Numbered from the stretch's first letter, positions 20,707-24,324 are shown. The stretch is DNA of 64,000 nt from Escherichia coli (GCF_003334765.1 NZ_QOWT01000002.1); one strand, 5' to 3'. The notes: generated by a model from the letters alone, not told the origin. Translations and numbers: made by a program.

Positions 20707-21645
20707 TCAGTTAAAAGGTTGTAAGTCGACGCGCGCCATCATTGCGGCCAACTGCGGACGATCGGTAATACCCACATTGCTTTGACTTACCGCCAGGGCT
20801 GCAACAGCTGTCGCCAGACGCAGTGTGTGTTCACTGGATTCACGCATCAGCAAGCCATAAATCAGGCCACCAACCATAGAATCCCCTGCGCCAACGGTGC
20901 TTACGACATCGACTGACGGTGGTTTGGCGATCCATTCGCCGGAGGCATTAACCCAAAGCGCGCCTTCGGCACCCAGTGAAATAACAACATGCGCGATGCC
21001 TTGTTCACGTAGCGCATGTGCAGCTTCAATCACATCTTTCATTTCAGGCAGTTTACGGCCTGCCCAGATTTCCAGCTCGCGGCGGTTAGGTTTCACCAGC
21101 CACGGTGCCGCTTTCAAACCTGCTACTAACGCTTCACGGCTACTATCAAAGATAATGCAAGGACACTGACTACGCAGGCGAGTCATCCAGTCGGTGAACG
21201 CTTCCGGGCTGACGCCTGACGGTAAGCTTCCGCTGACACAGACCATATCGAACTGACCGAGCCAGCTCAGAGAATCAGTCACAAAGCGTTCCCAGTCGGC
21301 GGGGGTGACTTCAAAACCCGAGAAGTTGAAGTCGGTCACTTCGCCGTCTTTTTCCGTCAGCTTAACGTTAATTCGGGTGCGCCCCTGTACAACCTGGAAA
21401 CGGTTGGCAATGCCCAGCTCGCTGAACAGTTGCTGAAAACCATCCTGATTGTCTTTACCCAGGAAGCCGCCAACGGTGACATCAATTCCCAGGTCTTTTA
21501 ATACTTTGGCCACGTTGATGCCTTTACCCGCCGCATGCAGACCGGTGGTTTTCACCAGGTTCACTTCGCCGCGTTCAATTTCCGGGCAGAAACCAACAAG
21601 GTCATAAGCCGGATTAAGGGTGATAGTAGCAACACGTCTGCTCAT
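20707..21645 (-). CDS. fruK: 1-phosphofructokinase, 312 aa
   Basis: ORF track 312 aa; PfkB family, position between fruB and fruA. Confidence 0.95.
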   Translation of the reverse strand: MSRRVATITLNPAYDLVGFCPEIERGEVNLVKTTGLHAAGKGINVAKVLKDLGIDVTVGGFLGKDNQDGFQQLFSELGIANRFQVVQGRTRINVKLTEKDGEVTDFNFSGFEVTPADWERFVTDSLSWLGQFDMVCVSGSLPSGVSPEAFTDWMTRLRSQCPCIIFDSSREALVAGLKAAPWLVKPNRRELEIWAGRKLPEMKDVIEAAHALREQGIAHVVISLGAEGALWVNASGEWIAKPPSVDVVSTVGAGDSMVGGLIYGLLMRESSEHTLRLATAVAALAVSQSNVGITDRPQLAAMMARVDLQPFN

Positions 21646-22775
21646 TATGCGCCCTCCCCAAGACCAGCAGCGATAGCGTCGCCGATTGCTTTCAGCGCCT
21701 GTTCAGCATCTGCACCCTGGGCGGTAAAGCGTAGGCGATGACCTTTCTTAACGCCAAGTGCCACAACTTTCATCAGACTACGTCCGTTTGCCGGTTTGCC
21801 GGTACCATCAAGGTTTGTCACGGTAATATCACTGTTAAATTGTTTAATGGTATTGACCAGCATGGTACCTGGACGAGCATGCAGGCCGTGTTCATTGCGC
21901 ACCACAAACTCCGCGCTTAACACGTCGTCGGTCGGCGCATCATCGCTGGTCAGCAGCGCCAGCAACGTTGCCGCATCCGCTTTCAGCAAGCGGTCAGCTT
22001 TATTGTCGAGCAATAAATCAGCGAGACGCTTAAGAACCGCGATGGGCTGATCGTCATTCATCGCCACACTCACCAGCATGGCTGCCGTTTCGCCGTCCAC
22101 ATCAAAAGCATTTGCCGCACGGCTTACCGCAATCGCGCTACGCAGATTGCCTTCGGCGCTATCGCTCAGCCAGATACCCTGTCCGAGATTCAGCGGTTGT
22201 TCATTGATGGCTTTGGTGACGAAAGTGGCGTCAACTGCCCCCGCCTCTTTCAGACGCGCAGCGTTCAGCGCCTGAAGAGTCAGCAGATCGCTGGCGACGA
22301 TATCCAGTGTCAGCATTTCGTTGTCGAGCTTCAGCTGCTCACTCTGCTTTTCGCCCATCAGTAATGCGCGAAGTTCTTCTGCTGTTGTTGCTGACTTCAG
22401 TTGTTCAGCAACGGAATCATCGCTCAGTACGTGGGTCAGCTGGCGTAGCAGGCCCAGATGTTCATCCGAGCTGGCAGCAATACCGATTGCCACGTACGCT
22501 ACCTGACCGTCACCCCAGGTGACGCCTTCCGGGAACTGAAATACCTGAACGCCGGTTTTCAGCACCTGATCGCGGGTGTCGGTAGTGCCGTGTGGAATAG
22601 CAATACCATTGCCGAGGAACGTTGAGGTTTGCTGTTCGCGCGCCAGCATGCCATTGACGTAGCCTTCTGCTACATTACCGGCCTGCACCAGCGCCGCAGC
22701 GACCTGGCGAATCGCCTCTTCTTTGTCTCCGGCCTTTTCGCCCGGATGGATGTCCTGTACGGATAACTGGAACAT
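21645..22775 (-). CDS. fruB: Fructose PTS multiphosphoryl transfer protein (EIIA-M-FPr), 376 aa
   Basis: ORF track 376 aa; C-terminal HPr-like domain. Confidence 0.95.
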
Positions 22776-22789
22776 AGTTCTCCTCTCTT

Positions 22790-22810
22790 GCTGAATTGAA
22801 ACGATTCAGC
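22790..22810. promoter_or_regulatory. Cra (FruR) operator, 21-bp palindrome GCTGAATTGAAACGATTCAGC just upstream of the fruB RBS
   Basis: Perfect inverted repeat gctgaat...attcagc around a TGAAACG core; matches the Cra consensus GCTGAAWCGWTTCAGC. Confidence 0.8.
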
Positions 22811-22861
22811 CTCTATGAGAAAAAAAGCGCCAACCTGGCTTAGGGTTAAAGACAAGATCGC

Positions 22862-22875
22862 GCTGAAACGTTTCA
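22862..22875. promoter_or_regulatory. Second Cra operator GCTGAAACGTTTCA in the fruB promoter region
   Basis: TGAAACGTTTCA is a perfect 12-bp palindrome matching the Cra consensus. Confidence 0.8.
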
Positions 22876-22969
22876 AGAAAGCATAATACTTCTGTTTCAG
22901 CACGCAAGGAAAGCCGTAAAGTTATGAGCAAAAGTTTGATGTGCTGCACAATTTTTTGCCATTTTTCCT

Positions 22970-23002
22970 AATTGCTGATGGGAAAATCCGTTATCAGCAA
23001 TT
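22970..23002. promoter_or_regulatory. Perfect 10-bp inverted repeat AATTGCTGAT-N13-ATCAGCAATT between the divergent fruB and setB promoters; candidate regulator site
   Basis: Seen directly in the sequence; no protein assigned. Confidence 0.35.
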
Positions 23003-23142
23003 TCATTTCAGCAGCGTCAGCAGCCAATCAGCAACAGTGAAATGGCATTTTGACTATTCGTGGCGCTTTTGATTTCGCTGTCTGTTTATTTTCTGACAAG
23101 CAGCGTAAACTCCGCGTCTTCCTCTTCCAGTGATCGACCAGC

Positions 23143-24324
23143 ATGCATAACTCCCCCGCAGTCTCCAGCGCGAAATCGTTTGACCTGACCTCGACGGCGT
23201 TTTTAATCGTTGCCTTTCTCACCGGTATTGCGGGCGCTCTGCAAACCCCGACACTCAGTATTTTTCTTACCGATGAAGTACATGCCCGTCCGGCGATGGT
23301 GGGATTCTTCTTTACCGGCAGCGCTGTCATTGGGATTCTGGTAAGTCAGTTTCTCGCCGGGCGCTCTGATAAGCGCGGCGATCGCAAATCGCTGATTGTC
23401 TTTTGCTGCCTGTTAGGCGTGCTGGCCTGCACCCTTTTTGCCTGGAATCGCAACTACTTTGTTTTGCTATTCGTTGGCGTCTTTCTTAGCAGCTTTGGCT
23501 CGACCGCTAACCCGCAAATGTTTGCCCTTGCCCGTGAACATGCCGACAAAACCGGACGTGAGGCGGTGATGTTCAGCTCTTTTTTACGCGCTCAGGTTTC
23601 ACTGGCATGGGTCATTGGCCCACCGCTGGCTTATGCCTTAGCGATGGGTTTCAGCTTTACGGTAATGTATCTGAGCGCAGCGGTAGCGTTTATTGTTTGC
23701 GGTGTGATGGTGTGGCTGTTTTTACCGTCGATGCAAAAAGAGCTTCCGCTGGCGACCGGCACGATCGAAGCGCCGCGCCGTAACCGTCGCGATACGCTGC
23801 TGCTGTTTGTCATTTGTACATTGATGTGGGGCTCGAACAGCCTGTACATCATCAACATGCCGCTATTTATTATCAACGAACTGCATCTTCCCGAGAAACT
23901 GGCCGGTGTGATGATGGGGACCGCCGCCGGGCTGGAAATCCCGACGATGTTGATTGCCGGATATTTCGCCAAACGTCTGGGTAAGCGTTTCTTAATGCGC
24001 GTTGCTGCCGTGGGTGGCGTCTGTTTTTACGCAGGAATGCTGATGGCGCATTCACCTGTCATTCTGTTGGGCTTGCAGCTGCTAAATGCTATTTTTATTG
24101 GCATTCTGGGCGGCATCGGGATGCTCTATTTTCAGGATCTGATGCCCGGTCAGGCGGGTTCAGCCACCACGCTCTATACCAACACTTCGCGCGTGGGCTG
24201 GATCATCGCAGGATCAGTGGCGGGCATCGTCGCCGAGATCTGGAATTATCACGCTGTGTTCTGGTTTGCGATGGTGATGATTATCGCCACTCTGTTTTGC
24301 TTACTGCGGATTAAAGATGTTTAA
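23143..24324 (+). CDS. setB: Sugar efflux transporter B (MFS), 393 aa
   Basis: ORF track 393 aa; MFS 12-TM profile. Confidence 0.93.

Follow-up and report, generated by a model that had tools for sequence, protein, structure and literature searches.

A conserved, helically phased GCTGA/TCAGC array upstream of fruB as a candidate control element of the Escherichia coli fruBKA operon

The spacer between the divergent genes fruB and setB of Escherichia coli was found to carry an array of GCTGA/TCAGC pentamers, which is conserved across Enterobacteriaceae and stays in constant helical phase with the primary Cra operator of fruBKA. The DNA analysed is a 64,000-nucleotide stretch of E. coli (GCF_003334765.1, NZ_QOWT01000002.1), termed the window below, and the array lies at 22970–23032. 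fruB, the first gene of fruBKA (21645–22775, minus strand), and setB (23143–24324, plus strand) were assigned from the listing of open reading frames (ORFs) and the annotation of MG1655. The 367-bp spacer between them was identical to positions 2263496–2263862 of E. coli K-12 MG1655 (NC_000913.3) and was present as a single copy in 5414 of 5426 complete E. coli genomes at an identity of at least 95%. Judged from its conservation, the array very probably binds a protein and has a function in the control of fruB. Cra, a flux-sensing global regulator of central carbon metabolism, has fruBKA as its founding target, and the fruBKA promoter commonly serves as a model and in biosensors. The Cra operators of the spacer were already known; the array is unannotated, and no description of it was found in the searchable literature and supplements. 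Its conservation and stereospecific placement are explained neither by the two-operator picture of this promoter nor by the accessible binding studies.

Conservation of the array

Orthologous loci were collected by a FruB scan of species-representative genomes, which yielded 80 Enterobacteriaceae loci; the counts of sites are given per 81 loci. setB was divergent from fruB in 72 of the Enterobacteriaceae loci, with a spacer of approximately 330–372 bp, and the unsupervised alignment and the pentamer counts were made on 73 spacers. Enterobacterales were covered by two families, Enterobacteriaceae and Yersiniaceae, the latter with seven loci (Yersinia pseudotuberculosis, Y. enterocolitica, Y. 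ruckeri, Serratia liquefaciens, Rahnella, Ewingella, and Chania). Since the loci share descent, such counts overstate the number of independent events; the distance classes and the orientation changes described below each recurred in several genera. Among the Yersiniaceae, the gene divergent from fruB was a NUDIX gene in Yersinia, Serratia, and Chania, and an MFS transporter of approximately 391–394 amino acids, across a spacer of approximately 450–510 bp, in Rahnella (L096) and Ewingella (L097).

The array was recognized from a 10-bp inverted repeat, the 5-bp core of which, GCTGA/TCAGC, recurred at 22974, 22994, 23008, 23017, and 23028. We termed the sites A to E, and all of them are given on the plus strand. 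Site A (22970–22979) is the left arm of the repeat, with the core GCTGA at 22974–22978 and the extended form TTGCTGA. Site B (22993–23002; core TCAGC at 22994–22998) is the right arm and is optional: it was found 17–21 bp from A in about 30 of the 72 array-bearing loci and was missing in about half of the genera. Site C, TTCAGCAG (23007–23014; core at 23008–23012), consisted of columns that were at least 95% conserved in the unsupervised alignment. Together with site D (CGTCAGC, 23017–23021), it forms a 9-bp direct repeat, TCAGCAGCG, present twice. Site E, ATCAGCAA (23028–23032), was specific to Escherichia. In E. coli strain E89 (L091), four copies of TCAGCAGCG instead of two were present at the equivalent of 23008–23024, an 18-bp insertion, which indicates that slippage can enlarge the array in E. 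coli.

GCTGA/TCAGC was the commonest 5-mer of the spacer in 73 of 73 orthologues (mean 7.8 copies, minimum 6), and the excess over dinucleotide shuffles, which contained 1.2 copies per spacer, was 6.5-fold. The commonest 6-mer of the distal spacer was GCTGAA/TTCAGC and the commonest 8-mer was TTCAGCAA/TTGCTGAA; the extended consensus of the array can be written as TTCAGCAA, or GCTGA[A/C]G. The pentamer columns of the unsupervised alignment were 80–95% conserved or better, whereas the bases between them were not. The GCTGA core was invariant at A, C, and D in 72–77 of 81 loci, and TCAGC-N4–7-TCAGC occupied the C/D position in 77 of 81. Such clustering was rare elsewhere: in 364 kb of K-12 sequence, picked to include major Cra targets, the array was the only cluster of at least four TCAGCA/TGCTGA hexamers within 100 bp. 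As far as these alignments show, purifying selection has acted on the array throughout Enterobacteriaceae and on the C/D pair in Yersiniaceae as well. A small gene, namely a 43-amino-acid ORF at 22941–23072, was also considered and rejected, since the spacings between the sites shifted by 1–2 nt from one orthologue to another and no reading frame was conserved.

Position and orientation of the sites

The positions of the sites were measured from the Cra operator O1 (22862–22877) and from a CRP-like site, TTTGATGTGCTGCACA, at 22935–22950. The latter, which a preliminary description of this DNA made from the sequence alone had not listed, matched TGTGA-N6-TCACA at 8 of 10 positions (shuffled-best mean, 6.9). 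It was present in 81 of 81 enterobacterial loci, and its centre was 73 bp from the centre of O1 in 76 of them. All seven Yersiniaceae loci likewise had both Cra operators, O2 and O1, and the CRP-like site 73 bp from O1. Cyclic AMP (cAMP)-CRP has been reported to target the fruB/setB spacer, and genomic SELEX (systematic evolution of ligands by exponential enrichment) gave a single CRP site in it.

Site A started 112–115 bp from the start of O1, C followed 31–34 bp past A, and D 9–11 bp past C. Measured from the CRP centre, the centre of A was at +33.5 to +35.5 in 63 loci, at +24.5 to +25.5 in 7, and at +15.5 in 2. The centre of C was at +66.5 to +69.5 in 59 loci, with other classes at approximately 57, 36.5, and approximately 77, and that of D was at +75.5 to +79.5 in the main class, with others at approximately 67, 47.5, and approximately 88. 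The distances of A, C, and D thus fell into discrete classes approximately 10 bp apart with nothing between them. Insertions and deletions of whole helical turns were tolerated and others were not, which is the signature of a stereospecific protein–DNA assembly. Auxiliary operators, too, would be expected to hold their helical phase to the primary operator and to change in distance from it by whole turns.

The orientation of the sites varied at these positions. In Klebsiella and Raoultella, site D was found at an unchanged place but as GCTGA. In seven of seven Yersiniaceae, a pair of GCTGA elements 10–11 bp apart, flipped relative to Enterobacteriaceae, occurred at CRP+55.5 to +56.5 and +66.5 to +67.5 (at +66.5 and +77.5 in Y. 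ruckeri), and thus shared the position classes of C and D. By this comparison, orientation is less constrained than position in the array, and site A is an addition specific to Enterobacteriaceae.

In E. coli, the centre of the C/D pair is 145 bp (approximately 13.8 turns) from the centre of O1 and 72 bp (approximately 6.9 turns) from that of the CRP-like site. At an assumed 10.5 bp per turn these are near-integral numbers of turns, so O1, the CRP-like site, and the C/D pair would lie roughly on one face of the helix. The promoter positions of fruB and setB used here are predictions from sequence. Relative to the predicted start of fruBKA transcription, the array would occupy about −100 to −155, on the far side of the CRP site, and fru promoter fragments that end at the CRP site would be without it.

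The same data bear on the possibility that the array is a relic with little present function, consisting of the decayed halves of ancestral tandem FruR operators or of the products of slippage of a 9–11-bp unit. Full tandem operators do occur in a comparable place in Vibrio and Aeromonas, and the C/D unit resembles a microsatellite, with TCAGCAGCG in two copies in K-12 and in four in E89. However, neutral decay would not hold pentamers invariant amid randomized neighbours across two families, nor would it confine insertions and deletions to steps of approximately 10 bp, and the pentamer excess over shuffles was seen in every one of the 73 spacers. We consider a relic improbable.

The gene served by the array

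It had been suggested in the preliminary description that a regulator binding here might act on setB or on a distal fruB promoter. The distribution of the array spoke against setB. Seven loci without an intact setB, in Phytobacter, Siccibacter, and some Kosakonia and Enterobacter, retained the array at the same distance upstream of fruB, and the conserved blocks proximal to setB were decayed or lost in loci without setB. In Yersiniaceae, the array pair was kept despite a different neighbour, a NUDIX or another MFS gene. Because the array persisted where setB was absent and where the neighbours had changed, it belongs to fruB and not to setB.

Two conserved blocks were found in the setB-proximal part. 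One is GAAATGGCATTTTGA at 23038–23052, a near-palindrome (AAATG-G-CATTT) recognized from conserved alignment columns. The other, CTGTTTATTTTCTGAC...GCGTAAACTCCGC at 23083–23116 on the plus strand, contained the most conserved columns of this part of the spacer and was absent where setB was absent. It is probably the setB core promoter, with TAAACT at 23106–23111 as a −10-like hexamer.

Relation to the 10-bp inverted repeat

The perfect 10-bp inverted repeat described earlier, AATTGCTGAT-N13-ATCAGCAATT, was recovered with a repeat finder at 22970–22979 and 22993–23002, with arms of 10 nt that are 100% complementary and 13 nt apart. The 64-kb window contained about 10 distinct perfect inverted repeats with arms of 10 bp or more and a loop of 3–20 nt, as compared with 1.2 in block-wise dinucleotide shuffles of it. 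By simple arithmetic, the latter figure corresponds to an expectation of approximately 0.007 per 367-bp spacer, and the repeat is therefore non-random.

Conservation in close relatives had been named as one test of this repeat, and it gave a divided answer: the 5-bp cores were conserved across Enterobacteriaceae, but the 10-bp palindrome was not. The palindrome was perfect in E. coli, including the divergent strains examined, and in L001 only, and it matched at 9 of 10 positions in E. albertii. Within Escherichia, lineage L002 had lost arm A and lineage L004 had lost arm B. The proposal of a site for a dimeric regulator fared similarly. The conserved cores do fit a protein site, but the unit is a set of four or five pentamers and not a single dimer site: site B was absent in about half of the loci, the distance from A to B varied from 17 to 21 bp, and the arms were not conserved beyond the pentamer, none of which is expected of a symmetric dimer. 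On this evidence, the 10-bp repeat is the E. coli-specific form of array units A and B.

A nucleic-acid structure peculiar to E. coli was weighed as another explanation of the repeat; it would be a DNA cruciform, or else an RNA hairpin carried by a setB leader or by a distal transcript of fruB. Folded as RNA, the repeat was stable on both strands (−13.6 and −13.4 kcal/mol; z about −3.8), and it was perfect in K-12 and divergent E. coli strains and near-perfect in E. albertii. However, the promoter/terminator scan found no terminator-like site and no U-tract on either strand, an Rfam scan of 22400–23500 gave chance matches only, and one or the other arm has been lost within Escherichia itself. 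Pairing between the flanks of A and B, A and C, and A and D was no commoner than in permuted controls, apart from marginal excesses, of which that of A:B concerned two inner positions (P about 0.01–0.02, uncorrected for phylogeny or multiple tests). The predicted −10 hexamer of setB is approximately 100 bp downstream of the repeat, which would place a hairpin outside the setB mRNA. With unconserved pairing, no terminator, and no Rfam match, the hairpin is at best an E. coli peculiarity, and a structural role for the repeat is very improbable.

Candidate binding proteins

The scan for known factors that the preliminary description had proposed was carried out by consensus, and the scores of the array region were compared with the mean best scores in shuffled spacers. 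No full match to Cra, CRP, FlhDC, CytR, PhoB, or FNR was found in the array. The best match to the Cra 16-mer was 11 of 16 (GCAATTTCATTTCAGC, without the central CG, within 22961–23040), where the shuffled-best mean was 10.1 and the maximum 12; site A itself, counted by hand, matched at 8 of 16. For the Ramseier Cra 14-mer, the best score was 11 of 13 (shuffled, 10.7). The remaining best scores were 6 of 10 for CRP (TGTGA-N6-TCACA; shuffled, 6.9), 8 of 14 for the FlhDC half-box AAYGSSNNAAATAGCG (9.8), 7 of 10 for the cre tag (7.3), 6 of 8 for the CytR octamer GTTGCATT (6.3), 10 of 18 for PhoB (11.6), and 6 of 10 for FNR (7.0). The earlier remark that the repeat had no obvious match to Cra was therefore right as to a full operator but not as to its parts: the repeat core is GCTGA(A), the outer half-site of the Cra operator, which is contacted by the helix-turn-helix domain and is also present in O1 and O2.

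By our rough estimate, the chance that an unrelated factor shares the half-site of the operon's own repressor is about 2%. Several points weigh on the other side. None of the array sites amounts to a complete Cra operator, as the highest-scoring 16-mer reached 11 of 16 and had no central CG, and the array logo, c[g/t]TCAGCAa, differs from the inner Cra half, CG[A/T]TTCAGC. The epd, pfkA, glk, ppsA, pykF, and tpiA operators of K-12 had only 0–2 pentamers in the surrounding 180 bp, against a background of 1.46 per 360 bp. The accessible papers describe two fru Cra operators only, and by atomic force microscopy no fragment of the fru promoter was seen to bear more than two separate Cra dimers. 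The phasing, which assumes approximately 10.5 bp per turn, would equally fit another protein that contacts CRP or RNA polymerase. A general rule of satellite half-sites around Cra operators was rejected, as the six other K-12 operators had no extra copies. The identity of the core with the outer half-site of the operon repressor thus pulls towards Cra, whereas the non-Cra flanks and the two published operators pull away from it. Taking both together, we put the reading of the array as Cra-dependent auxiliary half-operators of the fruBKA promoter at close to an even chance.

If the array does serve Cra, its elements would be low-affinity outer half-sites for Cra itself. The headpieces of Cra, if flexibly tethered, could contact pairs of pentamers one helical turn apart, without a proper central CG between them, and the complex might be stabilized by a DNA loop to Cra bound at O1 or O2. 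A bridging partner such as FruK may join it; published proposals include both a Cra tetramer and complexes in which FruK bridges Cra and which could form a loop. The expected outcome would be a tighter and more cooperative repression of fruBKA that is relieved by fructose 1-phosphate. Such a non-canonical half-site binding mode, if true, may also exist at other promoters and have been overlooked there, and it would bear on quantitative models of fructose induction and of the occupancy of Cra sites. More broadly, and at somewhat less than an even chance, we tentatively propose a third control layer of fruBKA, in which phased, orientation-tolerant half-sites would be read by Cra in a non-canonical mode, possibly with FruK or CRP as a bridge, or by a conserved protein that shares the Cra half-site. 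A sugar operon that is among the best studied would thereby gain a new binding mode or a new regulator.

A different conserved protein of Enterobacterales could instead read approximately 7–8 bp (GCTGA[A/C]G or TTCAGCAA) and act on fruBKA from upstream of CRP, where it would be a co-activator, a CRP-linked anti-activator, or an architectural factor. The extended motif carries information that is absent from Cra operators, namely A-A after TCAGC and C or G beside the core, and no such arrays occur at other Cra operators. Pairs of sites about one helical turn apart that tolerate changes of orientation would suit independently binding domains, the −35 of the predicted fruB promoter is weak, and biochemistry reports two Cra operators only. 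Against this, the sequence read by such a protein would have to coincide, by chance, exactly with the outer half-site of the fruBKA repressor, and none of the FlhDC half-box, cre tag, CRP, CytR, PhoB, and FNR consensus sequences scored above chance in the array. No regulator gene was linked to the locus in any family sampled, and the searchable papers and supplements report no further factor here. SgrR, the regulator of the paralogous setA locus, was considered in particular and rejected, since the SgrR-dependent sgrS and alaC promoters were without the GCTGA/TCAGC motif. A distinct protein seems less likely than Cra but is its main rival; if true, a conserved regulator of fructose uptake would be missing from the E. 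coli network. The single chromatin immunoprecipitation–exonuclease (ChIP-exo) peak labelled setB in PMC8464067 sits inside the setB coding sequence.

FlhD4C2 requires separate mention, as genomic SELEX with FlhDC gave its top listed intensity (82) at the fruB/setB spacer, a probe of the spacer was gel-shifted, and the mRNAs of fruBKA and setB were decreased in an flhD mutant (PMC9962212). The authors' own FlhDC box, however, is inside the setB coding sequence (23196–23238 in the window; PMC9962212). The new carbon-metabolism targets of that study (ptsHI, fruBKA, pfkA, epd-pgk-fbaA, adhE, aceBAK, and iclR; PMC9962212) are all classic Cra targets, which suggests that Cra was carried over in the protein preparation, and the peak at fruB/setB possibly arose in this way. 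In the array, the half-box score of 8 of 14 was below the shuffled-best mean of 9.8. Moreover, the array was kept in Klebsiella and Raoultella, which are non-flagellate genera. That the array is the FlhD4C2 site behind the SELEX peak is thus extremely improbable.

Comparison with other control regions

The fru layout, if read by Cra, would resemble the auxiliary operators and repression loops of lac (O1–O3, 92 bp) and gal (OE–OI, approximately 113 bp), in which the repressor of the operon, of the LacI/GalR family, has additional weak sites upstream of the promoter, past the CRP site or around it. The elements are near-integral helical turns from the main operator in each case, and length steps of approximately 10 bp would be tolerable for a loop. 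A 16-bp site that began at site A would, in the most frequent spacing class, have its dyad approximately 114 bp from the centre of O1. In contrast, both lac O3 and gal OE are pseudo-palindromes of full length that contain a CG-type core at the centre, whereas the fru elements are isolated outer half-sites of 5–8 bp in variable orientation. For the fru array, binding by Cra is a prediction from sequence.

CytR, a member of the LacI family with flexibly tethered headpieces, recognizes half-sites in direct or inverted order beside CRP. Short half-sites, tolerant spacing, and a fixed helical register next to a CRP site are shared with the fru array. However, the match of the array to the CytR octamer was at chance level, and a CytR-like flexibility or CRP contact of Cra would be an analogy only.

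In V. cholerae, the fruR–fruB control region contains three FruR operators (PMC7897506). We found a matching tandem layout in Vibrio sp. and Aeromonas caviae, in which fruR is divergent from fruB and full FruR operators, 22–25 bp apart, are located 160–190 bp upstream of fruB. The likeness to the fru array is that several FruR/Cra elements, a distal pair included, are spread over approximately 250 bp upstream of fruB. However, the Vibrio operators are complete 16-bp sites footprinted with FruR, and FruR acts as an activator at the distal ones, which overlap the promoter, whereas the Enterobacterales have a proximal promoter and distal elements that resemble half-sites only. The published fru picture of O1, O2, and a single CRP site omits, in its accessible descriptions, the elements at 22970–23032.

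Known operators and fruB promoter

The palindromes GCTGAATTGAAACGATTCAGC at 22790–22810 and GCTGAAACGTTTCA at 22862–22875, which the preliminary description had assigned to Cra, were found there both by reading the sequence and with the repeat finder. They agree letter for letter with the published fruB operators and so were already known: the fruBdistal operator GAGGCTGAATCGTTTCAA is an exact match to 22813–22796 and the fruBproximal operator TTCTTGAAACGTTTCAGC to 22879–22862, both on the minus strand. O2 (fruBdistal; GCTGAATCGTTTCAAT, 22795–22810, minus strand) matched GCTGAAWCGWTTCAGC at 14 of 16 positions, lies just upstream of the fruB ribosome-binding site, and was kept in 73 of 73 aligned spacers and in Yersiniaceae. 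An extra GCTGA abuts it next to the ribosome-binding site (22790–22794, plus strand), giving the palindrome GCTGAAT-N7-ATTCAGC; its alignment columns were conserved in nearly all orthologues. O1 (fruBproximal; GCTGAAACGTTTCAAG, 22862–22877, plus strand) also matched GCTGAAWCGWTTCAGC at 14 of 16 positions and was present in all orthologues. It would overlap the fruB transcription start, whose position we infer from the sequence.

A putative −10 hexamer of fruBp, TATTAT, was found at 22883–22888 on the minus strand, separated by 18 bp from TTTCCT. The same spacer length is cited for the fru promoter of E. coli in PMC7897506. In the alignment of 73 spacers, TATTAT was not conserved outside Escherichia. 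A TCAGC within the predicted spacer of fruBp (22897–22901, plus strand) was restricted to Escherichia, Citrobacter, and Salmonella.

Minor observations

The fruB coding sequence had the highest density of GCTGA/TCAGC among the 35 long ORFs of the window (15 per kb), with six pentamers in 150 bp at 22265–22410. This cluster was rejected as a candidate element, as its excess over synonymous-codon shuffles was 1.8-fold, like that of other genes, and amino-acid composition and codon context explain it.

Several records filed as plasmids bear a chromosomal fruBKA, among them pKAM479_3 of Aeromonas caviae (L089; 4.9 Mb) and pYPSE1-1 of Yersinia (L088; 502 kb). Several E. coli "plasmids" of 4.8–4.9 Mb likewise carry fruBKA. 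Having the size of a chromosome or a chromosome fragment, these records are probably mislabelled replicons.

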